This document shows, piece after piece, positions 25,498-54,279 of a stretch of 54,448 nt of DNA (positions within the stretch are counted from its first letter, which is position 1; each line of letters opens with the position of its first letter). The DNA is taken from positions 1 through 54,448 of IMG/VR virus record IMGVR_UViG_3300045988_021759; one strand, given 5' to 3'. This DNA comes from a virus. The position numbers were made by a program, and so were the translations under genes. The notes beneath the pieces are model-generated. The model searched no databases and was not told where the DNA came from. It saw nothing but the letters and a program-made list of their open reading frames with translations.

Positions 25498-25620
25498 AGG
25501 ATGCCTCCGGTTCAGCAACTAAGCGTTTTAAGTCGTCGCTCTGACTTGTTGCCCCTGCCTTGTTAAGTCCGCAGGTAGACTGATATTGCGCCCTCTTTGG
25601 CCTCATGCGGCCGCAGCGGG

Positions 25621-32713: not shown

Positions 32714-32788
32714 GGTGCGCCCGGTGGGACTTGGACCCACGGCTTCAGGATTAAAAGTCCTGTACTCTACCAACTGAGCTACGAGCGC
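32713..32788 (-). tRNA. tRNA-Lys (anticodon UUU), 76 nt with encoded CCA; T-loop has C at position 55
   Basis: GCGCTCG-TA-GCTC-AGTTGGTA-GAGT-A-CAGGA-CTTTTAA-TCCTG-AAGCC-GTGGG-TCCAAGT-CCCAC-CGGGCGC-A-CCA folds as a cloverleaf. Confidence 0.8.
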
Positions 32789-32869: not shown

Positions 32870-33002
32870 AGCCGATGGCTGGACTTGAACCAGCACCACA
32901 AGAGTTTCAATCCATCCGGGGACAGGCCGGACAGGGCCGCTCTTGCGTATCGTCAATGTGACCCGCCTTAACTGGGCGGCGCTCTGCTTGAGCTACAACG
33001 GC
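32870..33002 (-). ncRNA. Aberrant 133-nt tRNA-like gene (anticodon loop CAGUUAA, about 66-nt insertion before a canonical T-arm)
   Basis: GCCGTTG...CATCGGC acceptor (one T-T mismatch). CCGCC-CAGTTAA-GGCGG arm. Insertion closed by CAAGAG/CTCTTG. T-arm GCTGG-TTCAAGT-CCAGC. No encoded CCA. Confidence 0.4.
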
Positions 33003-40461: not shown

Positions 40462-41029
40462 TGGCAGCCTCCAATCTCGCCGGTTCCGGGCCGCAGCGCA
40501 GACGAGCAGCTTCCCGCGGCGCGGTCGTGATGTCCTCCCGCGACTGCTTCAGGAACTCGACCCGGCGATAGGTCAGGTCAGGCATCCGGGCCAGTTCTTC
40601 CAGCCCGCCGACGCTGCCGACATAGGACTTTGCCGCCGGGGGAAGCCCATCGAACAGAGCTTTCAGCTCTCCGGTGCCGTCGCTCCGCAGCAGCCCGCCT
40701 TTCTCGTCGATGCCGGTCACCATTGGGCAGGTGCGCCAGCTGATGTACTTCTGCGCCCTGTGCGCTGCATCCGCCAGCGCCACCCACTCGGCGTCCGGGT
40801 CGATGTTCTGGGACAGCTGCTTGAAGATGTCCGCCACCGTGATAGGATAAACGCACACACGGTTCGCTGCGAAGAACGCGCGTTTGACAACCTCACTGGG
40901 GTAGTCCTTGAACTGATACGCCCAGACGTCGATGGTGGTTTTCATCTCTTCGTCGGTCAGCGGCTTGGTTCCCAGCTTATACAGCGTCGCGTTCATCAAG
41001 ATCAGCTCCGCCGCCTCTTCCTTGGTCAT
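40454..41029 (-). CDS. Replication-associated protein (possible helicase-loader/G39P-like N-terminus)
   Basis: Follows the DnaD-domain gene. MTKEEAAELI... N-terminus. Weak assignment. Confidence 0.4.
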   Translation of the reverse strand: MTKEEAAELILMNATLYKLGTKPLTDEEMKTTIDVWAYQFKDYPSEVVKRAFFAANRVCVYPITVADIFKQLSQNIDPDAEWVALADAAHRAQKYISWRTCPMVTGIDEKGGLLRSDGTGELKALFDGLPPAAKSYVGSVGGLEELARMPDLTYRRVEFLKQSREDITTAPREAARLRCGPEPARLEAANA

Positions 41030-41844
41030 GTCTCAAAACCCCTTTCTTTGTCCATGTTGCCCAGTACGCGGGCCAGCTGGTCTCTCGTGCTTTCTGCGGG
41101 CTGCCGGGGGCTGCTACTCCTGCCGGTCGGCTGCCTGTTCTGCCATTGTTCATCGCTTGCAGCAACTCCCGCAGGGTTTTTGATGCCGTCTCGTTTCCAG
41201 CCTCTTAAAGTGCCGTCTACATACGTCCAGTTTCGTTTCCCGGCCTCAGCAGCTCTATCAATCGCCAGTAGAATCATGTCTGCACTGAACACATCCAGCC
41301 AACTCTTCAGCTTATAGCCAACAGAGGGAGGAAAGTCTCCGAACACCTCTTGGATGTGATTTGCGATTGATGCAAGGTCTTTGTCTACTGGTTCCGGCTT
41401 AACAACAGTAGTAGTAGTAATATCTGATACGTTAGTATCAGTTTGTACTTTGTACTTTGTACTTTGGTTTTTGTGGGTTTCGTTGGGTTCTTCATGGGTT
41501 TCCGTGGGTTTCTCTGAAAACCCATCGGTTTCTTTGGGTTCTTCTGAAAACCCATCGGTTTCTTTTGCTTTTCTAGGTCTGCCACCTTTGCGCCCATTTT
41601 GGCGGTTTGCCTCGATGGTGCGCTGATACGTTTTCGTGTTCTCGTCCAAAAACGGCCGCATAGCCTCGAACGCTATCTGTTCGATGGGTTCAAGTTCTTT
41701 CGGCTCTGTACCGCTTTTGACGTACTCGGCCATCGCAAAAAACACTCTGCGAAAAGCTGCATCATCAAGAACGTTCAGAAGTTTGAGCTTGTCAAACGGT
41801 ATCAGCAATCCTTTGGGGCGGGCAACCTCGATTTCGTCCGCCAT
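41026..41844 (-). CDS. DnaD-domain replication initiation protein
   Basis: C-terminal ...LLAIDRAAEAGKRNWTYVDGTLRGWKRDGI... DnaD-like motif. Internal KETDGFSE repeats. Confidence 0.7.
   Translation of the reverse strand: MADEIEVARPKGLLIPFDKLKLLNVLDDAAFRRVFFAMAEYVKSGTEPKELEPIEQIAFEAMRPFLDENTKTYQRTIEANRQNGRKGGRPRKAKETDGFSEEPKETDGFSEKPTETHEEPNETHKNQSTKYKVQTDTNVSDITTTTVVKPEPVDKDLASIANHIQEVFGDFPPSVGYKLKSWLDVFSADMILLAIDRAAEAGKRNWTYVDGTLRGWKRDGIKNPAGVAASDEQWQNRQPTGRSSSPRQPAESTRDQLARVLGNMDKERGFET
41400..41570. repeat. Iteron-like repeat cluster inside the DnaD-domain gene (candidate origin)
   Basis: (gta)x4; palindrome ctgatac-gtta-gtatcag; (tttgtac)x3; five gggtt(t)c copies; tctgaaaacccatcggtttc x2. 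Confidence 0.5.
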
Positions 41845-41873
41845 CGGCTCACCTCCTTTCTGCGGCAGATGAA

Positions 41874-42431
41874 TCAGAACGGCAGGTCGTCCGCGTCGGT
41901 TTCAATGATGCGGCTGTCGTCGTCATATTCGGGCGCAGCCGCCGGGGCCGGTTGTTTATCCGGTGCGGGTGCGGAAGCATTCTGCGGCGGCTCAGAGCCG
42001 GGGTCAAAGGGCGTTTCGCCGTCCACCGGCTCGAGGCCGTCCGGCTGATAGTGACCGGCATAGGCTGGCATGGTGGGAGCTTGCATCATGTCAATTGCTG
42101 TCTGAATCCATCGGGCAGTCACTGAGCCGTCCGGGAAGATGCCGTCGGCATCAAGATTCCAGTAGGTCTTGTCGCCGGATTCGTGGCTTTTCAGCTCCCG
42201 GCCAAAGGCCATGATGGCGTCGCCTTTCTGCAAAAGGCCGTCCCACTGCTCCAGATTGCGCCAGATGCAGCACTCAACAAAGAGGCTGTTCCACTTGCCG
42301 GATTCATCTTTGGTGCTGCTCGCCTTGACGCTGAGGCTCAAAAACCGGCTCCCTGACCGGGTTTCCTTGATTTCAGGCTCGCGGGACAGGGTGCCTAAAA
42401 CCTGCGTTCCTGTCTTGGTCTGGATAATCAT
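41874..42431 (-). CDS. ssb: Single-stranded DNA-binding protein
   Basis: OB-fold-like N-terminus, Pro/Ala-rich linker, acidic C-terminal tip ...DADDLPF. Confidence 0.8.
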   Translation of the reverse strand: MIIQTKTGTQVLGTLSREPEIKETRSGSRFLSLSVKASSTKDESGKWNSLFVECCIWRNLEQWDGLLQKGDAIMAFGRELKSHESGDKTYWNLDADGIFPDGSVTARWIQTAIDMMQAPTMPAYAGHYQPDGLEPVDGETPFDPGSEPPQNASAPAPDKQPAPAAAPEYDDDSRIIETDADDLPF

Positions 42432-43261
42432 TCGCCATCACCCTCAAACGGATCTTTGTCACTCTCGGTGACCTCAACGGCCAGCGGCGCGGGTTCTTCC
42501 TTGGGGGCCTTGTTGAGTTTGCGGCGGCGCATAGAGCCGTCAGGCTGCTCGCCGCCGTCCTCGACCTCGCGGAAATCGGCCTCCACGTCTGCGTTGACCT
42601 CGCTGACGTCGTACAGGCCACCAAAGGTAGAGGGGAACGCCTCGCGCAGAGCGTGGACAAGCGCCACCTTGCGAATCATAGTTGCCTTTTTGCCGCTCCA
42701 GAGGGACTTGCCGGTGTCGTACTCGGAGAGTTTGACTTCCTCATAGCTGGGATGGCTGCGGTCCTTGCGGTAGACTTTGGCCCAACCGCCCAGCAGCTCC
42801 TCGTCCTGATAGACGATGGAGCCTTCACGGTGTACCAGCTCGCCAACGTCTTTGATGAACACGATAACGCCAGCCTCGAAGCCATCATACTGAGGATGAT
42901 TTTCAGCCATCTTCAGGTAACAGGTCTTGCCCAGCACGATGGTGGAGGACGAATCGCTGTTCTTGTTGTCGTAGTGGATAAGGTACGCCTCGCGGGTAAA
43001 GGGGTTGAGGTGGTACTGACGGCAGGTTTCGAGGAAGATGCGGCATTCAGTCGGCGTTGCATCTTTGCAGATGAAGTTCTTCACATCGTCAAAGCTGACG
43101 ATAAGGTGCTGGCCGTCCATGCTGTCGATCTCGACCGGGGCCGATTCGGCGGCGGGCTGCATGGCCGTGTTCTGCTGCTGAACCTGAGCGGCGAAAGAAC
43201 GGCCCTGCGTGGTAGGGGTAGTGGTGGGTGCTGCTGCACCAGCGCGTGAAGTGAATCCCAT
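42428..43261 (-). CDS. recT: RecT/Bet-family single-strand annealing protein
   Basis: ...HLNPFTREAYLI...GKKATMIRKVALVHALREAFP... pattern. Adjacent to ssb. Confidence 0.7.
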   Translation of the reverse strand: MGFTSRAGAAAPTTTPTTQGRSFAAQVQQQNTAMQPAAESAPVEIDSMDGQHLIVSFDDVKNFICKDATPTECRIFLETCRQYHLNPFTREAYLIHYDNKNSDSSSTIVLGKTCYLKMAENHPQYDGFEAGVIVFIKDVGELVHREGSIVYQDEELLGGWAKVYRKDRSHPSYEEVKLSEYDTGKSLWSGKKATMIRKVALVHALREAFPSTFGGLYDVSEVNADVEADFREVEDGGEQPDGSMRRRKLNKAPKEEPAPLAVEVTESDKDPFEGDGE

Positions 43262-43284
43262 AATTGACCTCCTGATGATGTAAA

Positions 43285-44211
43285 TTATTCAATGCTGCCG
43301 AAGCGGAAGCCCCGCTCCTTGGCAGCCTGACGGAACCATTTGATATCTTCCGAGCTGAACTCAACCCAGAAATAATACTTCTTGCGGGCCGGGGTGCTGG
43401 GCTGTGCAGCGGCCATCGTCTGCATTGCCTCGACGTCCAAACGGCCATCCGGCGTGATGAATGCGGCGGCCTGCGTTGCTGCGGCAGCTTGCGCCCGCAT
43501 CTCGCGTTCTTCTGCGGTCGGGGGAACAATTACCGGAGCAGCCCTCCGCGCCCTCTCTGCCGCTTCTCTGGCAGCCTCCGCCTCCCTCTGTGCTGCGCGG
43601 GACTTCTCGCGGCGGGTATGCTCGCGGACAGCCTCGTTGACACTCAGGTTGTGCAGGTATTCGGTGGTGCAGGGTTCAGCGTCCTCTCCGCAGTTTTCGC
43701 GGATAAAGTCGAGGTCGCTGCGGATGCCCTCGATGGCTTTGCACAGCGCCTTTTTCGCTTCCGCAAGGTCAAAGGTCTTGTTCAGCCAGTGGGTGTCCAG
43801 CAGACGTTCAAAGGGAATCATCGGCTCCAGCTCGCCGATGCAGTCCCGATAGACCAGCTTCAGGGTGGACGCCTTTTCATCCTTTTCGGCCTGCTCGACG
43901 GCCTTGACCTGTTCATCAATCGCACCGGAGACCTTTTTGCACTGCTCCCGCATCACCTTGATGTCCGCCTGAAAGTCCTCCAGTGGCTTCAAGTAGATTT
44001 TCTTTGCAGCGGTGACAGCTGCACCCAGCTGCTTGTCCCAGTTGTTGATCTTGGCCCTGTCGTCTTTGGCTCTCTTGATGCTCTCCGGGGTGTAGACGAG
44101 GCCTGTGTAGGCTGCAAGCATCTCGTCGAGGTTCTGCTGCACCTCGTCTTTATTCCAGCTCATGGCCGGAATCACCGGGTTCTGCGCCCGGACAGTGAGT
44201 TCATTCGTCAT
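43285..44211 (-). CDS. DUF1351-like protein (commonly upstream of recT in Firmicutes phages)
   Basis: ATG at 44211 with AGGAGG SD. Coiled-coil. Assigned by synteny. Confidence 0.5.
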   Translation of the reverse strand: MTNELTVRAQNPVIPAMSWNKDEVQQNLDEMLAAYTGLVYTPESIKRAKDDRAKINNWDKQLGAAVTAAKKIYLKPLEDFQADIKVMREQCKKVSGAIDEQVKAVEQAEKDEKASTLKLVYRDCIGELEPMIPFERLLDTHWLNKTFDLAEAKKALCKAIEGIRSDLDFIRENCGEDAEPCTTEYLHNLSVNEAVREHTRREKSRAAQREAEAAREAAERARRAAPVIVPPTAEEREMRAQAAAATQAAAFITPDGRLDVEAMQTMAAAQPSTPARKKYYFWVEFSSEDIKWFRQAAKERGFRFGSIE

Positions 44212-44323
44212 TGTCGTTCTCGTCCTCCTGCTCCGCGTCACGCGGCAGAAAATAATAGTCGTCGGGCGGCTCCAGCGGCGGGCCGTAACCGTCAAGTGCG
44301 AGATCATACATCGGGTTCACCGG

Positions 44324-44620
44324 TCAGCCCGCCTTTCGGTTGTTGCTGTTCTGGGCACTCCGCGCCTCGGTGCGCTCAACGCGCCCATAAGGGCTGCTCC
44401 GCTTATACTGCTGGTTTTCCTCGTACATACCGTACAGGGACATTGCTAGCCCGCTTGCCAGTGCGAACAGAATCCACGGTGCCGACTTTGCAGCCGCTTC
44501 CGGTTCCCAGCTTCCACACACGACCAGCGCGTGAGCCATGAGCCGATTTGCCCAGCAAACCACCTGCGCAGCGCCAACCATTGCCAGACCGGCGACGGCC
44601 ATCTTCCCAATCATTCGCAT
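44324..44620 (-). CDS. Small two-TM membrane protein
   Basis: AGGAGG SD. MAVAGLAMVGAAQVV and WILFALASGLAMSLY hydrophobic segments. Confidence 0.6.
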   Translation of the reverse strand: MRMIGKMAVAGLAMVGAAQVVCWANRLMAHALVVCGSWEPEAAAKSAPWILFALASGLAMSLYGMYEENQQYKRSSPYGRVERTEARSAQNSNNRKAG

Positions 44621-44637
44621 TTTGCTTTCCTCCTGCT

Positions 44638-44898
44638 TTATTTCTTCGGCGCTTTCTTGCGCTGCTTCTTCGCTGCGCTGACCGGGGCCAGCGGCTTCAT
44701 CAGCTTCGGCGGCTTCGGGTCGTTGCGATGGAGCTTGTAATTCTCCACGTCCTCTGCCTTAAAAAAGAACTTGCTCCTGCTGCCTTTCTCTCCGTGCGAG
44801 TATGCAACGAGCTTTCCTTCCAGTCTCATCTGGAGGACACGCTGACGGCAAACACCAAGGGCCTCTGCGGTTTCCTGCGTGGTGTAGTATTCAGGCAC
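44638..44898 (-). CDS. HTH (excisionase/MerR-type) DNA-binding protein
   Basis: YTTQETAEALGVCRQRVLQMRLEGKL motif. GTG start with AGGAGG SD. Immediately downstream of a hammerhead candidate. Confidence 0.6.
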   Translation of the reverse strand: MPEYYTTQETAEALGVCRQRVLQMRLEGKLVAYSHGEKGSRSKFFFKAEDVENYKLHRNDPKPPKLMKPLAPVSAAKKQRKKAPKK

Positions 44899-44920
44899 GT
44901 TCTATGCCTCCTTTCTGCGG

Positions 44921-44986
44921 TTGGCTCCCGCGACACCCTTTCGGGTGTTTCGGCTGCTGCCGTGCAGCCATCATCAGGCGGGTTCA
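44921..44986 (-). ncRNA. Type I hammerhead ribozyme candidate (copy 2)
   Basis: Minus strand: CCCGC-CUGAUGA-U-GGCUGC(ACGGCA)GCAGCC-GAA-ACACCC(GAAA)GGGUGU-C|GCGGG. Predicted cleavage after C17 (complement of 44932). Confidence 0.75.
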
Positions 44987-45160
44987 GTCTTTGATTTCAT
45001 GCACATCGGTGATTTCGTTGATGTCCAAGCCGTGACCTGTTTCGTCAATCAACCGCTGAACAACTACGTTGCGAGCATCTATCGGGTCAGTGGCGTTGAC
45101 TTGGTACGAATCCCAGAACCGGTCAGCCGTGTTGAAAATCGAAACTTCATAACATTTCAT
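44984..45160 (-). CDS. Small hypothetical protein (58 aa)
   Basis: ATG at 45160 preceded by GGAGGA. MKCYEVSIFNTADRFWDS... Confidence 0.5.
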   Translation of the reverse strand: MKCYEVSIFNTADRFWDSYQVNATDPIDARNVVVQRLIDETGHGLDINEITDVHEIKD

Positions 45161-45163
45161 CGT

Positions 45164-45325
45164 TCAGTCCTCCACATTGATCATCGAGGTCAGGTTGTAC
45201 AGCGTTTCGTGGTCGTCCCACGAGATTTTCTCTTCCTCGAACGCCCGGTCGATCTGCGCCCAGCAGTCGTCCCTGTCGTTCTCCGTCTTGATAGCAGCGA
45301 TGGCTTTGACCAGCTTCTTGAACAT
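45164..45325 (-). CDS. Small hypothetical protein (53 aa), first gene of early operon 2
   Basis: ATG at 45325 preceded by AAAGGAAAA. MFKKLVKAIAAIKTENDRDDCW... Confidence 0.5.
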   Translation of the reverse strand: MFKKLVKAIAAIKTENDRDDCWAQIDRAFEEEKISWDDHETLYNLTSMINVED

Positions 45326-45362
45326 ATTGCATTTTCCTTTCTGTTTTGGCGTGGCTGGTTTT

Positions 45363-45417
45363 CGCTAGTTATTATACTAGCTTTGAGCTAGTTTGTAAAT
45401 AGCTTTTCGCTAATTTT
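45363..45417 (-). promoter_or_regulatory. Promoter/operator cassette A (early promoter 2): -35 TTTACA (45394..45399), -10 TATAAT (45371..45376), GCTA/TAGC inverted repeats
   Basis: TTTACA-N17-TATAAT on the minus strand. About 50/55 identical to 52246..52300. GCTAG-N8-CTAGC overlaps the -10. Confidence 0.65.
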
Positions 45418-45583
45418 TGAAAATATTTTAGCCAGCAGCTAATTGTCAACTGATAAAAAATAGGCGCTCCGCCCATTTGCCATATCAAAACAGTGTCATT
45501 TGCCCAGCATCCTCCGGGGTATCGGCTGGAGGCTTTGCAGCTCTGGGCTTGTAGGTGCGGGTCTGGGTCAAAACGTCGATCTC

Positions 45584-45718
45584 TCAGAACTCGAAGCCTT
45601 TGCAGTGGTTCAGCCGCCGCAGGGTAGGGCCATCCAGCATCTTGTCCTTATAGCTGCAATAGGCCAGCTCGTCATCGTTCAGACAGGCGTTGCAACAGTA
45701 CCGGCAGTATTGCTTCAT
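45584..45718 (-). CDS. Small Cys-rich (zinc-binding?) protein, 44 aa
   Basis: MKQYCRYCCNACLNDDELAYCSYK...HCKGFEF. ATGA overlap with the upstream gene. Confidence 0.45.
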   Translation of the reverse strand: MKQYCRYCCNACLNDDELAYCSYKDKMLDGPTLRRLNHCKGFEF

Positions 45719-46245
45719 CGCGGTTCCTCCCAGAATCCAAAGGTAGCCGGAAGCTCCATCCAGTGCGTGACGCGGCTGCCAGTCCTTCCGTCGGTGTCTT
45801 CCGGGTCAAGCAGGGCGTTCATTGTCGTCCCGCCGCCATCCCAGCCAACGGAGAAAATTTTCTGCTCTGTATCGTACATAGCAGGTGAAACATACTCCCC
45901 GTAGCTTTCATCTGGATAAAATGGGGAGCACTCCAAATCCCAAGTTATGACATTCACAAGGCATGGCACGAATATTTCATCTTCCTTGTCAGATTCGGGA
46001 AGGCGCGTCTTGATGCTGACCCACTGTCCAGCAAACTGCCCCTCTTCGTCACCGGCTAAAAGGCCAACAGGGACTTTCAGCCCAGTTGCGAACTTAGCCA
46101 GCATCTTGGCCGTCGGGTTGACCCCGCCGTTTTCATATAGGCTCACCGTCTGCTTGGTCACGCCCATTCTTTGGGCGAGCTGTATCTGCGTAAGGTGAGC
46201 TTCTTTCCGCGCTGCACGAATTTTCTCTCCGATAGGCTCAGACAT
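45715..46245 (-). CDS. XRE-family HTH protein with DUF551-like C-terminal domain
   Basis: IRAARKEAHLTQIQLAQRMGVTKQTVSLYENG HTH. C-terminal ...VTHWMELP. Confidence 0.75.
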   Translation of the reverse strand: MSEPIGEKIRAARKEAHLTQIQLAQRMGVTKQTVSLYENGGVNPTAKMLAKFATGLKVPVGLLAGDEEGQFAGQWVSIKTRLPESDKEDEIFVPCLVNVITWDLECSPFYPDESYGEYVSPAMYDTEQKIFSVGWDGGGTTMNALLDPEDTDGRTGSRVTHWMELPATFGFWEEPR

Positions 46246-46732
46246 CTTTCAGTTCCTCCACATAGCACCAGCTTTGAGGCGGGCGAGTAACCTCCACAGA
46301 CCGCATACCGAACCGTGTGCTCTGCAATCCTGTAAATTCTTCCAATTTGCGCGGAATGCCATAAATCTTCAAGTCGGAGATATGCCACGCCCATCCGCGG
46401 CACTTGCTCAGGTAGCGGACAATGCGGTCTCGGTCCATGCAAGCCATTTCTTCGACATCATCCGGGGCGCGGCATATCGGTGCAAGCTCCCAAATCTTGT
46501 CGCAGACGAACTCGCCAATGACCGTACCATCCAACCGCTGCCAGCCTTTGCCGGGGACAATTCGCAGCCAGCCCATCTTCGACCGCTCTTTCGTACAGTA
46601 GATGTAGCACTTAAATGGAGTCTTTACGCCCTCCGGCTTCGTCTTGCGCACCTCCACGGTCTTTTCTTTCAGGACGATCTTGCTGCACCATACCGGCTGG
46701 ATGCTCAACAGAACTGCTTTATTGTTGGGCAT
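46238..46732 (-). CDS. ASCH-domain protein
   Basis: AVLLSIQPVWCSKIVLKEKTVEVRKT N-terminal ASCH-like pattern. AAGGAGG SD. Confidence 0.55.
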   Translation of the reverse strand: MPNNKAVLLSIQPVWCSKIVLKEKTVEVRKTKPEGVKTPFKCYIYCTKERSKMGWLRIVPGKGWQRLDGTVIGEFVCDKIWELAPICRAPDDVEEMACMDRDRIVRYLSKCRGWAWHISDLKIYGIPRKLEEFTGLQSTRFGMRSVEVTRPPQSWCYVEELKDV

Positions 46733-47003
46733 TTTCTTCGCCTCCTTGATGTCGGTGGAGCCGCTCGTCTACCTCGCTGAGAGCCAGGATGTCCACGCTG
46801 TCAAGGCCACCATGCTGCACAAGAGCGTTCAGTAAGATTGAGGATTTCGCCATCTCCAGAGATGCAGATTTGCCCTCTTGCTCCTTTGTGGCTTTCCTGA
46901 TGATGTTGTTCAGGGTAACGATTTCCTCGCCGGTCAACTCGACGATGGCGGAACCGGGTTCATTCTTCGCATGGTCCCGATAAATTAACGAACGGATTCT
47001 CAT
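46719..47003 (-). CDS. Hypothetical protein
   Basis: 94-aa ORF with GGAGGG SD. Confidence 0.5.
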   Translation of the reverse strand: MRIRSLIYRDHAKNEPGSAIVELTGEEIVTLNNIIRKATKEQEGKSASLEMAKSSILLNALVQHGGLDSVDILALSEVDERLHRHQGGEENAQQ

Positions 47004-47020
47004 ATTTTCCAGCCCTCCCC

Positions 47021-47347
47021 TCAGTAATACTCGATTTCAACCAGAGATGTGGAAACCAACTCAAAGCGGCCATCTGACCGAGGGATACGGAGCAGCTGAT
47101 ATTCACGCTCAGCAGATAGCTTCGGGTCAGGCAGCAGCTCGCCGAAGTCCTCCACGGTGATGGTATACTTCGGATACCGCCGGGCTGCGTATGTTCCATC
47201 TTCAATGGCAGGAGAATAGACGGTGACGTGGTAACAGGGGTGGTCAGCAGTTCCAGCCTCAGCAGATGTAGAACCGCAGGCGGCAAACCAGAGCGTCAGG
47301 GTCAGCAGCAGAGCCGCGACAACAAAACAGGAAATTCGATTTTTCAT
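47021..47347 (-). CDS. Lipoprotein (signal peptide plus lipobox), superinfection-exclusion candidate
   Basis: MKNRISCFVVAALLLTLTLWFAAC|GSTS. ATGA overlap with the upstream gene. Confidence 0.65.
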   Translation of the reverse strand: MKNRISCFVVAALLLTLTLWFAACGSTSAEAGTADHPCYHVTVYSPAIEDGTYAARRYPKYTITVEDFGELLPDPKLSAEREYQLLRIPRSDGRFELVSTSLVEIEYY

Positions 47348-48015
47348 TCTTCCGCACGTCCTTTCAGGTATTCTTTGGCAGTTTCTTTGATGGCCGTATC
47401 CCGGAGGAACGTCCACGAATCATCGTCGTCAATGAGCTTCCGCATCTTGGCCGCAGCAGTTTGAACCAGTTTGCAAAGGGCTTTGCGCTCCATCCGGTAC
47501 TCCTGCCGGATTTCATCATCTGTGAGCTGGTCAATGTACGACTGAACATCCTCTATGTCGTTCTGTTTCTGGATGTCCCAGACGATTTCGCACCGGCGGC
47601 CATCAGCCTGAATGCCGTACAGCAGGAACGAAACTCCTTTGCTGTAACGATCATCGAACCAGTGCCAGACCTCCAGCCGGTTTGTGCCAGCCGGGAAATG
47701 TAGGAATGCAGCTTCTAGCTCTTCCGTTTCGGGGTTCATCGGAACATCGTCAAGCTGCTTCCACAGCGCTTCCAGAACAGCATCGCGCTTCTGCAAGGTT
47801 GCCATGCCCGCGCCGTTCACGGCCCGCTCGTTCCAGAGCTTCGCGGCCTGACCCTGCGCAATGAACTTCGTACTGTGCCACTGCTTGACCCATACAGCGC
47901 CGCCGGTAGCACCACAGCCGGAACAGGAAACGCGGTACCTGCCGCCAAAGTCCCGAATGTGCGCCGTGCCGCCGCAGAACGGGCAGGGCTTCAAATCAAA
48001 ATTCGCCATCTTCAT
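47344..48015 (-). CDS. Lar-like restriction-alleviation zinc-ribbon N-domain plus unknown C-domain (start 48015 or 48009)
   Basis: LKPCPFCGGTA...VSCSGCG...AAKLWNERA pattern. Confidence 0.55.
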   Translation of the reverse strand: MKMANFDLKPCPFCGGTAHIRDFGGRYRVSCSGCGATGGAVWVKQWHSTKFIAQGQAAKLWNERAVNGAGMATLQKRDAVLEALWKQLDDVPMNPETEELEAAFLHFPAGTNRLEVWHWFDDRYSKGVSFLLYGIQADGRRCEIVWDIQKQNDIEDVQSYIDQLTDDEIRQEYRMERKALCKLVQTAAAKMRKLIDDDDSWTFLRDTAIKETAKEYLKGRAEE

Positions 48016-48018
48016 TCC

Positions 48019-48540
48019 TCACTTTCTGGAAATCAGTTCCATGCACAGCTCTTTGTAGGTGTCACGCTGCACACAGACCTTGATAAATTCGGCGTCCTCG
48101 TGCGAGTGCCCCCCCTCAGAGGGCTTTGCAGGTGCCGCCGGGACAGCAGCGGGAGCGGGTGCAGCAGCCACGACCGGCACGGGCTGAGGCTTGGACAAGT
48201 AGTTGTCGAGGCCGAGGCTGGCCATTATGGCGACTTCCACCGCCTCCATTTCGCCCTGCGTCAGCTTGCCGTAATAATCGTTCAGGCGGGTCTTGTCCAC
48301 GGTGGTGATTTGCTCACAGATTGCGGTAGAGGGGCGCTGTGCGCTGTCAATAAAGACGTGCGTAATCAGCGGCCTCTTCTCTTTTGTGGTCAAGTAGACC
48401 ACCTCGACCGTGGCAGCGTTCTTGTTGTTCAGGTTGTTGCTGACGACGATACCGGGCCGCCCGCTGCGCTGCTCGCAGCCGACCTCGTTGCCCTCCGGCA
48501 GCACATAATAGATTTCACCGCGATAAACCATTCCGTTCAT
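48019..48540 (-). CDS. MazF/PemK-like toxin-fold protein with a roughly 60-aa C-terminal extension
   Basis: RGEIYYV....G.EQRSGRPGIVVSNN...VEVVYLTT....P.THV.I......SAICEQITTVDKTRL matches the PemK/MazF layout. Confidence 0.6.
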   Translation of the reverse strand: MNGMVYRGEIYYVLPEGNEVGCEQRSGRPGIVVSNNLNNKNAATVEVVYLTTKEKRPLITHVFIDSAQRPSTAICEQITTVDKTRLNDYYGKLTQGEMEAVEVAIMASLGLDNYLSKPQPVPVVAAAPAPAAVPAAPAKPSEGGHSHEDAEFIKVCVQRDTYKELCMELISRK

Positions 48541-48553
48541 GATAAAGCTCCTT

Positions 48554-48973
48554 TCAGTTTTCAGAAATCCAATTTTTCAGCCACTTCATGCTCATGTCGT
48601 GGTCGATAAAGGCCATCATCAAGCCGTGCTTGATGCCGCAGCCCATATAGGTATAAATCAGCTCCATATCCTCTTCCGAGAAGTCTGTGTCCAGAAAAGC
48701 ATTGACACCGGCCAGCATAAGCTCGTGGAACCTCCTGTTCCTCCACTCCTGCGAATACGGCTGCGTCTTGAACGCGGGCCGCGAAAGGTATTCCAGCATC
48801 TTTGCCTCGACCGCTTCAACGGTCTTACAGTCCCGCAGGATAAAATACTGGTTCGTGCGCGGGTGAGCAATAAACTCGTCCCGGTCATTGATAAAGCTGC
48901 CGGGGAAGCATTCAAGGAGTTTTGCGCGGGCTTCCTCCATGTCAGCTGCGCTCTGACGTTCTTTGTCATTCAT
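48554..48973 (-). CDS. Hypothetical protein
   Basis: 139-aa ORF with AAGGAGG SD. Confidence 0.55.
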   Translation of the reverse strand: MNDKERQSAADMEEARAKLLECFPGSFINDRDEFIAHPRTNQYFILRDCKTVEAVEAKMLEYLSRPAFKTQPYSQEWRNRRFHELMLAGVNAFLDTDFSEEDMELIYTYMGCGIKHGLMMAFIDHDMSMKWLKNWISEN

Positions 48974-48985
48974 GAGAGTGCCTCC

Positions 48986-49813
48986 TTATACAAGAATCGT
49001 GTCTTTCGTTACCTGCGCATTGTCGCTGATTTCTATGACGGAATCCTCGGTGACCTCAATTTTGGCGGTCATTTTTCCGCCGTCGAAAGGTCTGAATGCT
49101 GTGCGGTAATCGTCGAAAATGGCATACTTGCCATCAAAGAAGAATGTCCCGTAGTTCTTGGAGCGATATTCACAGTTCGTTTTGAGCGTGAGCAGCTTCG
49201 CTCGCTTTCCAACAAAATTCGGGGTCTTTTCGCCCTGCTTAGGGTCAGCTTCAACCACCGCCTCGTACAGTTCCGGGAACAGGGCGCGGAGCCTCAGAAG
49301 AAAGAATGGAACTTCATCGGCCTGATATTCTCCGACTTCGCCATATCCAAAAAGCGTATGGGGATGCGCATTGCAGATTGTCAAGATGTTTTCTGCCGTG
49401 AAATACTTCTCCGGGATATAGGTCATCTCTTTCATCCCGAAACTGAGGCCGTCGTCAATCAGCTTTCCGTTTTCGTTGAGCTTCAGGCTGACATACCGCA
49501 GCACAACAAGTGCGTCATTCCCGATTCTGACGAGTTTTTCATTAAAGGGAAAATTCAGGACAGAGTAATTCGGGTGTGCCTTTGCTGCATCCCGAATCTT
49601 GTTGTACATCTTGGAACGCTTCGTGCCTCCGTCAACCCGGCTCACGCTCCCGACCATGCAATGCCTCGAAAGAGGCACCGTCACAGCAAAGCAGGTTCCT
49701 TGTTTGTATGCAGAGCATTCATTCGCCCGGTCGCAGAAAATATACTCCGCCCGCAGACGGCAGTCCCTTGAACCGCTGCCGTAAAGGTTCACGTTGATGG
49801 CTTCTTCATTCAT
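48986..49813 (-). CDS. Hypothetical protein (Cys-rich N-terminus)
   Basis: ATG at 49813 overlaps the upstream stop (ATGAATGA). Confidence 0.55.
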   Translation of the reverse strand: MNEEAINVNLYGSGSRDCRLRAEYIFCDRANECSAYKQGTCFAVTVPLSRHCMVGSVSRVDGGTKRSKMYNKIRDAAKAHPNYSVLNFPFNEKLVRIGNDALVVLRYVSLKLNENGKLIDDGLSFGMKEMTYIPEKYFTAENILTICNAHPHTLFGYGEVGEYQADEVPFFLLRLRALFPELYEAVVEADPKQGEKTPNFVGKRAKLLTLKTNCEYRSKNYGTFFFDGKYAIFDDYRTAFRPFDGGKMTAKIEVTEDSVIEISDNAQVTKDTILV

Positions 49814-50732
49814 CGTTTTGTCCTCCCTGAAGCAACTTGATTTCTTCCAGCGCCGCGCGGGCCGCCCGCTTGCCATTCTCATTGAGGATGCGCTGCCATG
49901 CGCCCTGAGAGGGCGACCAGCGGAAAGCATGGCTCTTCAAGATGGCCCGGATATCCGGCTCAGGCTTGCCGTCAAAAATGAGCTGCACCCGCATCTGAGC
50001 GCTGTTTTCGTGGTAGGTAACGCCGGGCAGCTCCACGACCTCCACCGGTTGGGCGTTGGCCGTCGCGGCGGCCTCAACTTCCTTGATACGGTCTTCCAGC
50101 CGGTGAATGCGGGCCGTCGAATTGCTCAACTGCCACGGCAGGAACGGCGCACGGTCGCCCCACTGTTTCATCCGGGCCTCAATCATGGCCTGTTCGCAAG
50201 GGCCAACGCCCTCACAGCCCTCCACTGTGCCGAACTGGCGGAAATGCTTATTGACGACGATCATGTGTTCGTGCTTCTTCTTTTCGTCCTCCAGTTTCTT
50301 ATTCAGAGCTGCAAGCACTTCAGGGTCGCGGCTCGTGACCGGTGCGTTGAGTGCATAGCTGCGGATGCGCTCCAGCAGCTCAGCAGCCTTATTGTAGTTG
50401 GCGAGATTCGCCTCCCAAGCATCTGTCTGCCGTTCCTTCTTCTTCACAGGGAAATTGGCGCCGCCGACAATCAGGACGCTCGGACACCATGTCCCAACCT
50501 CGTTCTCCCGGTTGATTGCAAAGGCCAACGTCCGCTCGTACTTATCGAGCATCCCATCCACCCGGTTGCGCTGTGCAGTGGTCTTGCAGCGGGACTTTGC
50601 TTGCTCTGCAATCTCCCGCGCATTGGCGACCTGCTTCTGATAGTCCGCCGTGGCCTTGCCCGGAACGTAGTCCCGGAACGAGCGCATCTCGTGGGCCTTG
50701 CGGGCCATCTCTTCGTTGATTTCGTACCCCAT
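49806..50732 (-). CDS. DUF3560-like domain protein
   Basis: C-terminal FDGKPEPDIRAILKSHAFRWSPSQGAWQR pattern. Confidence 0.5.
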   Translation of the reverse strand: MGYEINEEMARKAHEMRSFRDYVPGKATADYQKQVANAREIAEQAKSRCKTTAQRNRVDGMLDKYERTLAFAINRENEVGTWCPSVLIVGGANFPVKKKERQTDAWEANLANYNKAAELLERIRSYALNAPVTSRDPEVLAALNKKLEDEKKKHEHMIVVNKHFRQFGTVEGCEGVGPCEQAMIEARMKQWGDRAPFLPWQLSNSTARIHRLEDRIKEVEAAATANAQPVEVVELPGVTYHENSAQMRVQLIFDGKPEPDIRAILKSHAFRWSPSQGAWQRILNENGKRAARAALEEIKLLQGGQNDE

Positions 50733-50735
50733 TGT

Positions 50736-51005
50736 TTAGGCTCCTTTCTGCATCTGGGGGAAGAAAAACTTCCCGACGTCCTTTTGCGAAATCTCCAGCA
50801 GCTCGCAGATGGCTTCAATCTCGCTGCTGCTCCATTCTGCATGGCCGCCCATCTTCCGGGAAAGCGTGGGCGGCTTCATGCCCAGTGCTTCGGCAACCTC
50901 TTGGTCGCGGTATCCGCGCTGGCGGAAAACGCCCCTCAGCGCAAAATACGGAATGTTGCGGTAGCTGCCCACCGGGGGCGTTGCCGGGGCTATGCGTTTT
51001 CTCAT
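50736..51005 (-). CDS. Small HTH DNA-binding protein (Cro/antirepressor-class candidate)
   Basis: YRDQEVAEALGMKPPTLSRKMGG HTH-like segment. AAGGAGG SD. Confidence 0.55.
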   Translation of the reverse strand: MRKRIAPATPPVGSYRNIPYFALRGVFRQRGYRDQEVAEALGMKPPTLSRKMGGHAEWSSSEIEAICELLEISQKDVGKFFFPQMQKGA

Positions 51006-51021
51006 GACCTGTGACCTCCTT

Positions 51022-51420
51022 TCAAACGTCGATGCTCACCGAATGATATGCGAACCAGTGGCCGCGACGGCGGAACAACTTAAACCAGTTCGTGAACTTC
51101 TGGCCGGAGCAGTCGTAGGGCGTCGGATAGAACTCTAAGTAGCGATTCGCCCGGAACCAGTCAGCGGCAATCTCTTTGTGAGCCTTGTCCAGCTCCTCCG
51201 GGAGCTGCACCAGCTCGATATAGCCGTTAGAGCCGCGCTCCTCAATGATGTGGCTATCCGATGCCGGACGGCGGTTGAACTCCCGAATCTCCATCTTGAC
51301 GGTTGCGGCCAAGTTTTTCACGGCGGCTTTCTTTTCGGAAGAGGCAGGAACATCACTCTGCATAAACATCAGGAGCGCATAAGCGTCCCGCAGCCTCTCG
51401 TTGTCGGTAATGTTGAACAC
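51022..51420 (-). CDS. Hypothetical protein
   Basis: GTG start with AAGGAGGTG SD. Confidence 0.5.
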   Translation of the reverse strand: MFNITDNERLRDAYALLMFMQSDVPASSEKKAAVKNLAATVKMEIREFNRRPASDSHIIEERGSNGYIELVQLPEELDKAHKEIAADWFRANRYLEFYPTPYDCSGQKFTNWFKLFRRRGHWFAYHSVSIDV

Positions 51421-51423
51421 TGT

Positions 51424-51663
51424 TCACACCTCCTTGATTTCTTCCCAGTCCGTGACCAGCCGGACACGGATGCGGCTTTCAATGACTTTCTGCTGCGGGT
51501 CGTCCGGGTAGCGGCCCGCAAGGGTCTGGATTGCGTTCTGCGCTTCCTCCAGCGTCCCGGCGTACCGCTTGGCGGCGGGCGACGTGTGCCAGATGGCATT
51601 CGCCCAGCGCGTCGGAGCGAATGCGAACTTGACCTGCGCAAGATACTCTTCGTGCATGGACAT
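51424..51663 (-). CDS. Hypothetical protein (immediately downstream of a hammerhead candidate)
   Basis: ATG with GGGAGG SD. Confidence 0.55.
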   Translation of the reverse strand: MSMHEEYLAQVKFAFAPTRWANAIWHTSPAAKRYAGTLEEAQNAIQTLAGRYPDDPQQKVIESRIRVRLVTDWEEIKEV

Positions 51664-51690
51664 CTAAAATCCTCCCAAAATCTAAATTGT

Positions 51691-51760
51691 GCGATGGCTC
51701 CCGCGACGCCCTTTCGGACGTTTCGACCTGTGCCGGAGGTCATCGTCAGGCGGGAAAAGC
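51691..51760 (-). ncRNA. Type I hammerhead ribozyme candidate (copy 1)
   Basis: Minus strand: UUUUCCCGC-CUGACGA-U-GACCU(CCGGCAC)AGGUC-GAA-ACGUCC(GAAA)GGGCGU-C|GCGGGAG. Predicted cleavage after the complement of 51705. The upstream ORF's stop codon is the UGA of the CUGA box. Confidence 0.75.
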
Positions 51761-51997
51761 GGGGCACACAGCGCCGCGAAAGTGCGTGAGCCGGATTGCG
51801 TGTTTCAGCTCCTTGTCGCTCATGCAAGCGGTTTGGAGCTGGCGGACAAATCCGATTGCCCACCAGAGGCCCTGCACCGTCTGGTGGTCGAGGATAGCCC
51901 GACGCTCTGCGTCGGTCTGGGCGGCGAAATACCGGCGGAGCGTTGCCTCGCAAGTCGAGACGAAGTTCACCGGAATGTTGATGGATGCAGTGTTCAT
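51746..51997 (-). CDS. Hypothetical protein
   Basis: ATG with AAGGAGG SD. Confidence 0.55.
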   Translation of the reverse strand: MNTASINIPVNFVSTCEATLRRYFAAQTDAERRAILDHQTVQGLWWAIGFVRQLQTACMSDKELKHAIRLTHFRGAVCPAFPA

Positions 51998-52190: not shown

Positions 52191-52320
52191 TTGATTTTCT
52201 AGCTTGTGAGTGTTATTATTTAGCTAGTATCTAATTTATCTCTGCGCTAGTTATTATACTAGCTTTTCGCTAATTTGTAAATAGCTTTGCGCTAATTTTT
52301 TTGAAAAAATTTAGCTAACT
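52191..52320. promoter_or_regulatory. Divergent immunity-region promoters and operators (cassette B at 52246..52300)
   Basis: Minus strand: TTTACA (52276..52281)-N17-TATAAT (52253..52258). Plus strand: TTGATT (52191..52196)-N17-TATTAT (52214..52219). Multiple GCTA(R)-N8-9-(Y)TAGC inverted repeats. Confidence 0.65.
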
Positions 52321-52341
52321 GTGAGTTTTGGAGGTTATCCC

Positions 52342-52743
52342 ATGGGCGCTTTTATGTTTGATCGACTTGACTTCTTGCTAAAAAGAAACGGAATGACGAG
52401 AAAAGCGCTGTGCGCAGCATCTGGCCATGCGGACAATTATATTCGGATGTTCGAGAAGCGAAACACGGAGCCTCCGAGAGAATTTGTAAATTTCTGCGCT
52501 CAGAAGCTAGACACAACTAGCGCATACCTATTTGGCGAAACCGACGACCCGGCAGCGCCCAGCGCTCAGGTTGTGCAGCCGGAAAAAGAAAAAGGCCCCG
52601 CAGCTGAAAGCCACGGGGTCACAGATGAAGATTTGAAATTTGCACTCTTTGGGGGCGGGGACGTGACCGACGCTCAATTTGAAGAGGTCAAGTCCTTCGC
52701 TCGTTTCGTAAGGGAGCGAGATGCGAATGGACAGAGTAAATGA
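52342..52743 (+). CDS. XRE-family HTH repressor (cI-like)
   Basis: ATG at 52342 with GGAGG SD. LLKRNGMTRKALCAASGHADNYIRMFEKRN HTH. Divergent from the early operon. Confidence 0.75.
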   Translation: MGAFMFDRLDFLLKRNGMTRKALCAASGHADNYIRMFEKRNTEPPREFVNFCAQKLDTTSAYLFGETDDPAAPSAQVVQPEKEKGPAAESHGVTDEDLKFALFGGGDVTDAQFEEVKSFARFVRERDANGQSK

Positions 52744-53146
52744 ATTATATAGTATTGCAGAAGAAAACGGTGTGGAGGTCTATAACTTCCCGCTGCCGCT
52801 CACTGGCAGCCTGAGCGAAGAAATAGACGGACGCTGCTGCATCGGCATGGACAGCACTCGGCGCTTCACGCGAGCCGAGGAAGCTGCGCGGCTTGGGCAT
52901 GAGCTGGGCCATTGTCTCTATGGAGGCTTCTACACCAAGTTGACGCCCTTTGACATCAAGGAGCGCCACGAGGCCAGAGCCGACCGGTGGTACATCCGGC
53001 ACTTCATCCCAGAGGACAAGCTGATGTCCATGCTGGAAGCCGGGATGGATGCTTGCGAGATAGCGGAAGAGCTGGACACCACGGAAGAGTATGTCCGGCG
53101 GGCCTACTACTATTACAAAGACGTGAGAGGGGGTGTCTTTCATTGA
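52721..53146 (+). CDS. ImmA/IrrE-family zinc metalloprotease
   Basis: HELGHCLYG (HExxH) motif. Directly downstream of the XRE repressor. Confidence 0.8.
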   Translation: MRMDRVNELYSIAEENGVEVYNFPLPLTGSLSEEIDGRCCIGMDSTRRFTRAEEAARLGHELGHCLYGGFYTKLTPFDIKERHEARADRWYIRHFIPEDKLMSMLEAGMDACEIAEELDTTEEYVRRAYYYYKDVRGGVFH

Positions 53147-54279
53147 AAAAGAGAACGACAACGGCGGAATGGCAGGAATGCACGAAGCGCTGGAGAATCC
53201 GGGTGCAGAAGAACGGTGTTATGAAGAGCTTTTACAGCAGCACACCGGGCAGAACCGGCCAGCGTGAAGCGAATGCCAAGGCGGACGCATGGCTTGACGA
53301 CAGTGTCCGGGACGGCAGGAAGAAGATTTCCGTTCTCTATGCTGAATGGGTCGAAGAAAAGGGTCTGACCTGCGGCACATCCTACAAAGAGCAATGTGAG
53401 AAGTACGGCAACTACTACATTCTTCCGGTGATTGGGAACCTTAGAATCGAGGACTTGACAGAGGGCGATCTGCAAAAAGCAATTGACACCTCTTTCAAAA
53501 AGCGCTGCCTGTGCAAGCGTAAGGTCATGAAGAACAGTGATAAACCGTTGAGCAAAAAGACGCTCATGACCATCCGTTCCGTTGAGAACAGCTTCGTCAA
53601 GTGGTGCAGGAAGAATAAATACACCACGCTGATGCCAGAGCTGACGATTCCTAAAAACGCCCGCATTGGAGAGAAGAAGATTCTCCAGCCGGAGGCTCTG
53701 CGCATCTTGTTTTCGGTCGATACGCGGAGGTGGTACGCGAAGAACGTCTTCGACGAATACATCTACGCCTATCGTTTCGCCGTATCTACCGGTGTTCGTC
53801 CCGGTGAGCTGGTCGGCCTCTGGTACGGCGATATCAAGGGTAACACGGTCAACCTCCGGCGCAGCATCAACACGCTGGACGAGGAAACCACCGGCAAGAA
53901 CGAGAACAGCATCCGCTCTTTCGATATGTGCGAACAGGCGCGGGAAGCCTATGAAGCGCAGGTGCAGCTCTTAAAAGATTCTGGCATACAGCTCAACTAT
54001 AATACCCCGCTGTTTCAAATCCCTTGCCAGCGCTCCCTCAAACGCCGGTGGGAGAAGTATCAGGATGGAAACGGTATCAGCCCGCGCATCACTCTGTACG
54101 AGCTGCGTCACACCTTTGTCAGCATGGAGGCCGGGGAACTGACGGACGGCCAACTGAAGATGCTTGTCGGCCACAGCAGGAACATGGACACCTTCGGCGT
54201 ATACCGGCACGAGATCAAAGGCCAGCGCGAGGCGCTTGCAGCAGCCACGACGGCTGCCATCAACAAGGCGCACGGCTGA
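53143..54279 (+). CDS. int: Tyrosine integrase (TTG start)
   Basis: TTG at 53143 with GAGAGGGGG SD. N-terminal arm-binding-like WRIRVQKNGV...ANAKADAWL. Catalytic LYELRHTFVS and GHSRNMDTFGVYRH motifs. Confidence 0.85.
   Translation: MKKRTTTAEWQECTKRWRIRVQKNGVMKSFYSSTPGRTGQREANAKADAWLDDSVRDGRKKISVLYAEWVEEKGLTCGTSYKEQCEKYGNYYILPVIGNLRIEDLTEGDLQKAIDTSFKKRCLCKRKVMKNSDKPLSKKTLMTIRSVENSFVKWCRKNKYTTLMPELTIPKNARIGEKKILQPEALRILFSVDTRRWYAKNVFDEYIYAYRFAVSTGVRPGELVGLWYGDIKGNTVNLRRSINTLDEETTGKNENSIRSFDMCEQAREAYEAQVQLLKDSGIQLNYNTPLFQIPCQRSLKRRWEKYQDGNGISPRITLYELRHTFVSMEAGELTDGQLKMLVGHSRNMDTFGVYRHEIKGQREALAAATTAAINKAHG

Follow-up and report, generated by a model that had tools for sequence, protein, structure and literature searches.

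The sequence analysed here (the window) comprises all 54,448 nucleotides (nt) of the IMG/VR virus record IMGVR_UViG_3300045988_021759, which carries on its minus strand, at the junction between a gene for an 83-amino-acid (83-aa) protein and one for a 79-aa protein (neither with a Pfam or PHROG match), a short element with the sequence and predicted fold of a type I hammerhead self-cleaving ribozyme, termed copy B. A sister element, copy A, lies further along the same strand, and a strict pattern matched just these two sites in the window, with 0 sites in 100 shuffles. Both had been proposed as ribozymes in an initial annotation made from the letters alone. The coordinates of the two copies, their parts and the surrounding genes are collected in Table 1.

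Read on the minus strand from 51760 to 51690, copy B has the sequence UCCCGC-CUGACGA-U-GACCU(CCGGCAC)AGGUC-GAA-A-CGUCC(GAAA)GGGCG-U-C / GCGGGA-GCC, which matches exactly the hammerhead reading given in the initial annotation. All 13 invariant core positions are present, along with A15.1-U16.1, G10.1-C11.1 and a C at H17, where the class criteria stated in passages of Perreault et al. (PMC3088659) are C3 U4 G5 A6 N7 G8 A9, G12 A13 A14, A15.1-U16.1 and H17. Every pair next to the core is formed (G10.1-C11.1, C-G at 1.1/2.1 and A-U at 15.1/16.1) and the topology is that of type I, with stem I open, stems II and III capped by loops and the cleavage site near the 3' end; because C17 is position 51705, cleavage is predicted between 51705 and 51704. 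The minimum-energy fold of the 60-nt copy B segment is the hammerhead three-way junction, with a z score of only -1.5. An additional unpaired U sits at the A9/G10.1 junction, an optional feature found in about half of the family members among the matches listed. The UGA within the CUGA box was confirmed as the stop codon of the 83-aa gene, as had been claimed, and the stem I 5' strand doubles as the final two sense codons of that gene, CCC GCC (Pro-Ala).

Copies A and B share the same layout, stem I, extra U and GAAA loop, as the initial annotation held, and only its extension of this identity to the core had to be withdrawn, the variable position N7 being C in copy B and U in copy A. Stem II is different and still paired, with GGCUGC/GCAGCC in copy A and GACCU/AGGUC in copy B, while stem III shows the reported exchange of G-C for A-U accompanied by a second, U.G to C-G, on going from copy B to copy A. 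Copy A folds cleanly into the hammerhead as its minimum-energy structure (z = -2.7), with predicted cleavage between 44932 and 44931. Its ribozyme sequence recurs exactly at one other locus (L008) and with a single loop II change at a second (L030), and the stem II of copy B recurs in the Christensenellales phage PV036454 and at locus L047, with a different stem III in each (all among the matches listed). Since each copy is thus closer to relatives in other phages than to its sister, the pair is not the product of a recent internal duplication.

Covariation and model scores across the family

More than 300 relatives of the element were gathered from viral and bacterial contigs. A covariance model, R1, was built from 42 other phage hammerheads, with the window, the near-identical phage locus L098 and near-identical alleles excluded; its source was an IMG/VR scan with a pattern fixing only stem I and the core, which returned at least 120 loci. 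Run with filters off, R1 scored copy B at 64.5 bits (E = 6e-15) and copy A at 77.6 bits (E = 2e-18). Alongside the strict-pattern result, these values put the match well outside chance expectation. A third hammerhead was not found in the window by R1 under the same settings, as the sites at 41502-41561 (15 bits) and 47699-47760 (12 bits) both lack the core.

In a second IMG/VR scan, with the base of stem II fixed and with stem I and the tail free, the stem I variants recovered were CCCGC/GCGGG (n = 51), CCCAC/GUGGG (n = 12), CCCGU/ACGGG (n = 5), CCCAU/AUGGG (n = 3), CCUGC/GCAGG (n = 3) and many singletons. From these loci, R1 recovered 74 copies, sampled without a constraint on stem I, to form alignment A2. 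In A2, which was fitted to the model and is to that extent biased toward the structure, standard pairs occupied 98.1% of cells compared to 73.9% in shuffles (0 of 500 shuffles reached the observed level), both sides had changed in 15 of the 17 pairs, and compensatory cells numbered 272 where 73 were expected. Pairing fell to 30-43% when the 3' partner was slid by 1-3 columns. Even with this bias, an effect so large, together with the raw sequences as listed, leaves little doubt about the predicted structure. Covariation of the helices was also seen on 37 distinct copies from loci that carry the 83-aa gene.

The contact between loop II and the 3' tail covaries as well, at its third position. 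Loops with GG-C were accompanied by tails with G-CC in 69 of 70 copies, GG-U by A-CC in 33 of 34 and GG-A by U-CC in 6 of 8, and a pseudoknot of at least 4 base pairs (bp) could be formed in 58% of copies, compared to 33% in permutations. The claim that the stem changes between copies A and B reflect the covariation of a functional RNA is therefore borne out in the wider family, in which all three helices and the pseudoknot covary across more than 70 independent phage copies. Hammerhead identity is supported by this comparative evidence, which is much stronger than the comparison of two copies from which the proposal started.

Placement of the element and a predicted hairpin on the 3' product

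Copy B lies in an operon that would be driven by a promoter-like site (P1), after which the order is a 53-aa open reading frame (ORF), the 83-aa gene, hammerhead B, the 79-aa gene, a 132-aa gene, a helix-turn-helix (HTH)/DUF739 protein and a primase, followed by MazF-like and Lar-like genes and then another HTH regulator. Behind a second promoter-like site with the same hexamers and spacing (P2) come a 61-aa ORF, a 58-aa ORF, hammerhead A, an HTH_17/excisionase-like gene, a DUF1351 protein and RecT, and each hammerhead copy is located approximately 400-500 nt downstream of its promoter-like site, behind two small ORFs. This setting agrees with the initial annotation, in which the ribozymes were placed in two consecutive early operons, each ahead of a Shine-Dalgarno sequence; the division into operons is a reasonable inference, the promoters being consensus matches only. 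The regions around P1 and P2 (52180-52330 and 45300-45450, minus strand) are paralogues of approximately 90% identity with repeated palindrome-like TTAGCG.AAAGCTA motifs, which are probably operators of a shared repressor.

Table 1. Positions of the two hammerhead copies, the parts of copy B and the neighbouring genes and signals in the window
Feature	Position	Strand	Basis or remark
Hammerhead copy B, full extent including 3' tail	51691..51756	minus	type I topology, stem I open; R1 64.5 bits
Copy B stem I 5' strand, UCCCGC	51750..51755	minus	pairs with GCGGGA 51704-51699
Copy B core C3-A9, CUGACGA	51743..51749	minus	UGA 51748-51746 is the stop codon of ORF 51746..51997
Copy B extra unpaired U between A9 and G10.1	51742	minus	sequence
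Copy B stem-loop II, GACCU / loop CCGGCAC / AGGUC	51725..51741	minus	loop GGC 51734-51732 holds the pseudoknot bases
Copy B core G12 A13 A14 and A15.1	51721..51724	minus	invariant in alignments A1, A2 and A4
Copy B stem-loop III, CGUCC-GAAA-GGGCG, and U16.1	51706..51720	minus	helix 51720-51707; U16.1 at 51706
Copy B predicted cleavage site, C17 (51705) / G1.1 (51704)	51704..51705	minus	follows from hammerhead consensus (GUC, then cut)
Copy B stem I 3' strand, GCGGGA	51699..51704	minus	would become the 5' end of the 3' cleavage product
Copy B 3' tail, GCC	51696..51698	minus	complementary to loop II GGC (pseudoknot)
Predicted 5'-terminal hairpin of copy B 3' product: GCGG, loop GAGCCA, UCGC	51691..51704	minus	4 bp including one G.U; minimum-energy fold
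Hammerhead copy A, including downstream CCGC (44920-44917)	44917..44983	minus	R1 77.6 bits, E = 2e-18
83-aa gene, upstream of copy B	51746..51997	minus	62 homologous loci
79-aa gene, downstream of copy B	51424..51663	minus	homologues with 81-100% aa identity in 6 loci
Shine-Dalgarno GGGAGG (51676-51671) and ATG (51663-51661) of 79-aa gene	51661..51676	minus	41 nt past the cleavage site
Promoter-like site P1, TTTACA-17-TATAAT	52253..52281	minus	would drive the copy B operon; near-consensus match
Promoter-like site P2, TTTACA-17-TATAAT	45371..45399	minus	upstream of copy A; near-consensus match
CI-like HTH protein	52321-52743	plus	lysogeny module, right end of window
ImmA-like metalloprotease	52721-53146	plus	lysogeny module
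Integrase	52987-54279	plus	lysogeny module

The 83-aa ORF is a genuine gene, with homologues at 62 loci in viral contigs (70-100% aa identity), and at 60 of these R1 detected a same-strand hammerhead downstream, the two exceptions being incomplete loci. The distance from the stop codon to the hammerhead ranges from 15 nt to approximately 1.2 kb, with 0-3 different small genes in between, so that the association, rather than the exact position, is conserved; conservation at the protein level alone, the outcome that the initial annotation had set against its own proposal, is not what these loci display. For the 79-aa gene, the homologue in L185 (on the same contig as L098) has a hammerhead immediately upstream, that in L186 is preceded by one at a distance of 335 nt and directly followed by another, and those in L187-L190 have a hammerhead only downstream. 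The 132-aa gene is shared with the Faecalibacterium phages Taranis and Pioen, and no hammerhead was present in the 5.4 kb examined in these. Neither megablast nor blastn found a close relative of the phage among GenBank phages, where, apart from protein-coding matches, the sole match was the 60-nt ribozyme in Christensenellales phages.

The position of the element relative to genes follows a pattern across the family. Placement statistics were drawn from 172 unique copies that passed a descriptor scan, of which 159 had a same-strand upstream ORF of at least 50 codons ending nearby. The upstream stop was the UGA of the CUGA box in 49/159 (31%) and lay at most 5 nt before stem I in 73/159 (46%), copy A among these, with only 4/159 having a stop deeper within the ribozyme. 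Because 31% of family members show it, the overlap with the stop codon is one of two standard packings and no peculiarity of copy B. Downstream, a start codon after a Shine-Dalgarno-like motif followed in 139/172, the cleavage site lying a median of 41 nt before it (interquartile range 34-51). Homologues of the 83-aa protein end in ...VCPAF(Q/N/K)A-stop (GCY TGA), while those of the window and L098 end in ...VCPAFPA-stop (UUU CCC GCC UGA), and the overlap looks as if the ribozyme and the 3' end of the gene had been joined through a GCCTGA microhomology, a fusion by which the penultimate codon would have become CCC.

Bacterial genomes that matched the pattern with stem I fixed belonged, among the matches listed, to Clostridia, Christensenellales, Paenibacillus, Desulfosporosinus, many Cyanobacteria, Acetobacteraceae, Betaproteobacteria, Actinobacteria, Planctomycetes and others, with up to 6 copies in 8 kb, and viral contigs carried hammerhead arrays of up to 6-8 copies. 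Eight loci from viral and bacterial contigs (L036, L040, L058, L075, L085, L204, L209 and L210) contain 5-8 hammerheads of this subfamily in 4-8 kb, approximately one per small gene, and such arrays are denser than the tandem and triple hammerheads that appear in passages of the 2011 paper (PMC3088659).

Beyond the ribozyme itself, most copies carry, 4-13 nt past stem I, a segment complementary to the first 4-5 bases of the predicted 3' product (approximately 60-70% of members). In copy A this segment, CCGC (44920-44917), is a perfect complement, giving a predicted hairpin at 44931-44917, while the UCGC of copy B (51694-51691) reaches 4 bp only if its G.U is counted. Among the matches listed, CCGC occurred at most 20 nt downstream in 96 of 136 copies and in 24-30 of 136 in control windows. 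The downstream segment also tracks the start of the product: CCGC was found downstream of GCGG products in 80 of 114 copies, GUGG products had CCAC in 12 of 18 and CCGC in only 3 of 18, and ACGG products had CCGU in 3 of 7 and CCGC in 0 of 7. In a permutation test of the first 4 product bases, in which the sequences are related to each other and not independent, the Watson-Crick fraction was 0.58 observed and 0.09 permuted; for copies other than GCGG it was 0.33 compared to 0.13 (maximum of 0.26 in 1000 permutations), and in those copies with G.U allowed it was 0.50 compared to 0.45 expected, which is not significant. These data are suggestive of a covarying hairpin on the 3' product that would have the pseudoknot tail within it and form in competition with stem I, and we propose that it could free the 5' fragment, prevent religation and provide a cap for the new 5' end. 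No mention of the covarying hairpin or of the stop-overlap statistics was found in passages of PMC3088659.

An alternative origin for the downstream CCGC, as a target-site duplication of the stem I 5' strand, was considered and dropped, as L125 and L169 match the complement of the 3' strand instead, though such cases are few. L125 combines CCUGC/GCAGG with a downstream CUUGC that pairs with GCAGG via G.U, and L169 combines CCCAU/GUGGG with CCCAC downstream; both argue for RNA pairing over a DNA direct repeat.

Predicted function and competing readings

Taken together, we put a probability of roughly 85% on the reading that copy B is a type I hammerhead self-cleaving ribozyme of a widespread phage and prophage subfamily with a pseudoknot between loop II and the 3' tail, located in the leftward early operon of a temperate phage, where it would cut the early messenger RNA (mRNA). 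From the sequence and structure, covariation, placement and operon conservation observed above, we infer both the cleavage and its effects on mRNA stability and translation. Once the stem I 3' strand and the AGCC tail have been transcribed, the RNA would fold into the three-way junction, the GGC/GCC pseudoknot would dock stems I and II, and the RNA would cut itself after C17, between 51705 and 51704. The upstream mRNA would keep its own stop codon and end in a compact stem II/III body with a 2',3'-cyclic phosphate, and because the type I cut lies 3' of the stop codon, this message would stay translatable. The downstream mRNA, which would inherit only GCGGG and the tail from the ribozyme, would begin with a 5'-OH and a 41-nt leader that forms a small hairpin (GCGG...UCGC) before the Shine-Dalgarno sequence. 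The cut would thereby separate the two small leading genes of the operon from the remainder, which begins with the 79-aa gene, splitting a polycistronic early transcript into separately stable and separately translated pieces, whose different ends would give them different stability and translation.

A number of points weigh against the ribozyme reading. The best Rfam match, the hammerhead model RF00163 (Hammerhead_1), scored copy B at 18.8 bits (E = 0.034 in a 181-nt search; model positions 1-45, core and helices correctly assigned), below its gathering score of 34, and gave no match to copy A even at E up to 10, where only spurious small nucleolar RNA and microRNA matches appeared; a scan of the whole window at the Rfam gathering threshold returned no hammerhead. 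The pseudoknot of copy B has only 3 bp, and its stem III includes a G.U pair where L098 has G-C (GCCC/GGGC). In a 111-nt context the place of the true stem I 5' strand is taken, in the minimum-energy fold, by a CCCCGC further upstream (51766-51761), and the hammerhead fold is 0.9 kcal/mol less stable when the pseudoknot is uncounted. This competing CCCCGC (51761-51766, minus strand) sits within the coding region of the 83-aa gene. A ribosome terminating on the core UGA would moreover unfold stem I and the core, and cleavage must then compete with upstream translation. At the level of function, a 2019 review (PMC6765202) calls the roles of bacterial hammerheads largely elusive and repeats the idea of polycistronic processing.

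Regarding the first of these points, a covariance-model score below threshold had been named in the initial annotation as an outcome that would refute its proposal, and taken at face value the Rfam score is such an outcome. In the consensus of RF00163, stem III is very short and the extra U is missing, which lowers the score of phage copies in which stems II and III are long. Because the family-specific model gives 64.5 and 77.6 bits, the Rfam miss is judged to reflect the limits of that model and not to count against hammerhead identity. The Rfam type I model thus misses an abundant phage subfamily at its curated threshold, and annotation pipelines that use this threshold overlook the subfamily.

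The same weaknesses could be read as those of an inactive hammerhead-like relic, or of a structured pair of intergenic hairpins whose sole effect would be to stabilise the upstream message at its 3' end, with no cut being made. A score under the Rfam threshold, an isolated-fold z of only -1.5, a pseudoknot of only 3 bp and the additional U at the junction would suit such a relic, and passages of Perreault et al. (PMC3088659) allow that some genomic hammerheads may be non-functional. We nevertheless regard this as very improbable, given that the core of copy B does not deviate from the consensus, the extra U is optional and present in about half of an otherwise perfectly conserved family among the matches listed, stem III is strengthened by the change seen in the close relative L098, and the family model returns E = 6e-15. 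The position of the stop codon raises a different prospect, namely a translation-sensitive switch, as opposed to a constitutive processing site, in which upstream ribosome traffic decides folding, with cleavage and downstream expression reporting translation of the 83-aa gene. Here the CUGA-box UGA is the stop codon in copy B and in 31% of the family, a terminating ribosome would, going by the size of its footprint, occlude stem I and the core as well as some of stem II, and the alternative pairing with the coding-region CCCCGC differs little in energy from the hammerhead fold. The overlap is, however, optional, as the stop lies just outside stem I in 46% of the family including copy A, and the FPA-stop ending (CCC GCC TGA) resembles a fusion at the GCCTGA microhomology, pointing to compaction rather than design; we therefore consider such a switch unlikely.

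A further reading places the role at the level of DNA, with the conserved core (CCCGCCTGAYGA ... GTCGCGGGAGCC) serving as a homology patch for cassette exchange and RNA cleavage being secondary or leftover. L098 is 98.4-98.8% identical to window positions 40504-51974 except in the body of the gene directly upstream of copy A; the match is restored precisely at stem I at one edge and at codon 6 at the opposite one. When ribozymes of at least 93% identity from different loci were paired (47 pairs), the 80-nt flanks were unrelated on both sides in 12, upstream only in 10 and downstream only in 8, and the hammerhead position relative to homologous genes varies among related phages. These flank data fit hammerheads acting as recombination junctions or as independently moving modules. 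As the main role of the element, a homology patch nonetheless appears quite unlikely to us, because compensatory changes, G.U pairs that exist only on the sense strand and pseudoknot covariation imply selection on the RNA fold; moreover, the bases that never vary are those of the catalytic core, the element is placed and oriented according to the genes, and mosaic junctions also occur at plain gene boundaries without a hammerhead. Such a role could also add to ribozyme function rather than replace it. The swapped stretch spans 44984-45144 in the window and 4479-4643 in L098, where the replacement is unrelated in sequence and its ORF ends on the CUGA-box UGA.

Combining ribozyme function with these flank data leads to a speculative extension, possible in our estimation and still doubtful, in which the family would provide a two-layer punctuation of gene cassettes: an RNA insulator formed by the ribozyme and the covarying hairpin, and core patches of 12-25 nt that would serve at the DNA level as preferred junctions for the swapping of early-gene cassettes among temperate phages. 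If so, the hairpin would form from the stem I 3' strand after departure of the 5' fragment, and the RNA layer would make cleavage irreversible, release the 5' product and provide a uniform, protected 5'-OH leader of approximately 40 nt whatever lies upstream, and the DNA layer would explain both the near-identical ribozymes in unrelated flanks and the L098 replacement that ends exactly at copy A.

Relation to known hammerheads and other features of the window

The ribozyme reading places copy B close to published examples. Type I hammerheads described in passages of Perreault et al. 2011 (PLoS Comput Biol; PMC3088659) have, like copy B, the catalytic core, a three-helix junction and an open stem I, and Figure 2B of that paper depicts stem I-II pseudoknot contacts in all three types, the contact in copy B being that of loop II with the 3' tail. 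According to the same passages, pseudoknots are needed for fast cleavage, prophage hammerhead clusters flank genes and several of them cleave in vitro and in vivo, and hundreds of bacterial hammerheads are known, many near prophage integrases and often with several flanking single genes. Cleavage was shown there for multi-hammerhead transcripts of Clostridium scindens, Azorhizobium caulinodans and Agrobacterium tumefaciens, and the segmentation of long phage transcripts into gene-length mRNAs, the role suggested for the window in the initial annotation, was already proposed. In these passages as in the window, single genes or short gene blocks of phage early regions are bordered by several hammerheads, for which the same role is proposed; unlike the tested examples, copy B is found in an uncharacterised temperate gut phage without a close GenBank relative. 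The HHphage ribozyme of haloviruses HF1 and HF2, for which a transcript 5' end was mapped near the cleavage site (passages of PMC3088659), differs in having core insertions, salt-dependent activity and archaeal hosts, whereas copy B has a canonical core. A crystal structure of a pseudoknot hammerhead (PMC11300833) was set aside as a match, its architecture being different, with the pseudoknot in place of helix II.

Overall, copy B is very probably a well-supported but ordinary example of the phage hammerheads known since 2011. On its own it confirms what was established then, and its value is that of a tractable case for what self-cleaving ribozymes of bacteria and phages do, set in a well-defined early operon beside a lysogeny switch. 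In the collection of papers searched, no experimental study after 2011 on the function of phage type I hammerheads was found. The 83-aa gene occurs in more than 60 gut-phage contigs and is followed by a hammerhead, at varying distance, wherever the downstream sequence suffices, and the regularities of the family (a stop at or in the CUGA box, approximately 41 nt to the start codon and the covarying hairpin) predict effects on mRNA stability and translation.

Two further systems invite comparison with single features of copy B. The synthetic RiboJ-type insulator attributed to Lou et al. in 2012 reportedly joins a hammerhead, engineered from one of type III in satellite RNA, to a hairpin, unrelated to stem I, before the ribosome-binding site. 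Both arrangements would place a ribozyme, a short hairpin at the new 5' end and a Shine-Dalgarno sequence in succession, and yield a defined leader independent of the upstream sequence, a likeness that we regard as a functional analogy only; in copy B the predicted hairpin reuses the stem I 3' strand and encloses the pseudoknot tail. The plus-strand hammerhead of the viroid CChMVd, attributed to De la Pena and Flores in 2001, is of type III and reportedly carries an extra base between A9 and G10.1 that is compatible with activity. The extra base of copy B has the same position; it is a U and is optional within the phage family.

Between the two hammerheads, the window encodes a MazF-like growth inhibitor (48019-48540) and a Lar-like restriction-alleviation protein (47344-48015), both on the minus strand. 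A gene of the same host-takeover or anti-defence type, ardA, is noted beside hammerheads in passages of Perreault et al. (PMC3088659).

Structured RNAs of other kinds were also detected on the minus strand of the window. Rfam scans identified an RT-2 RNA (RF03077) at 4536-4801, with 67 bits and above threshold, and a GP20-b RNA (RF03003) at 25520-25581, with 39.8 bits and just above the threshold of 36.2. The RT-2 motif is, judging from its name, presumably associated with reverse transcriptases. A transfer RNA (tRNA) gene, tRNA-Lys(UUU), lies at 32713-32788, and approximately 80 nt from it lies a tRNA-like sequence (32870-33002; Rfam, 39.3 bits) with an insertion of approximately 60 nt after the anticodon arm, at which ARAGORN made no tRNA call and which could be an interrupted or intron-containing tRNA, or a pseudo-tRNA. 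Tandem repeats were found at 41442-41565, with units of 7 nt (3.6 copies), 10 nt (3.8 copies) and 30 nt (2.4 copies), in or beside ORF 41026-41844 in the replication and recombination region, and these may be origin iterons.

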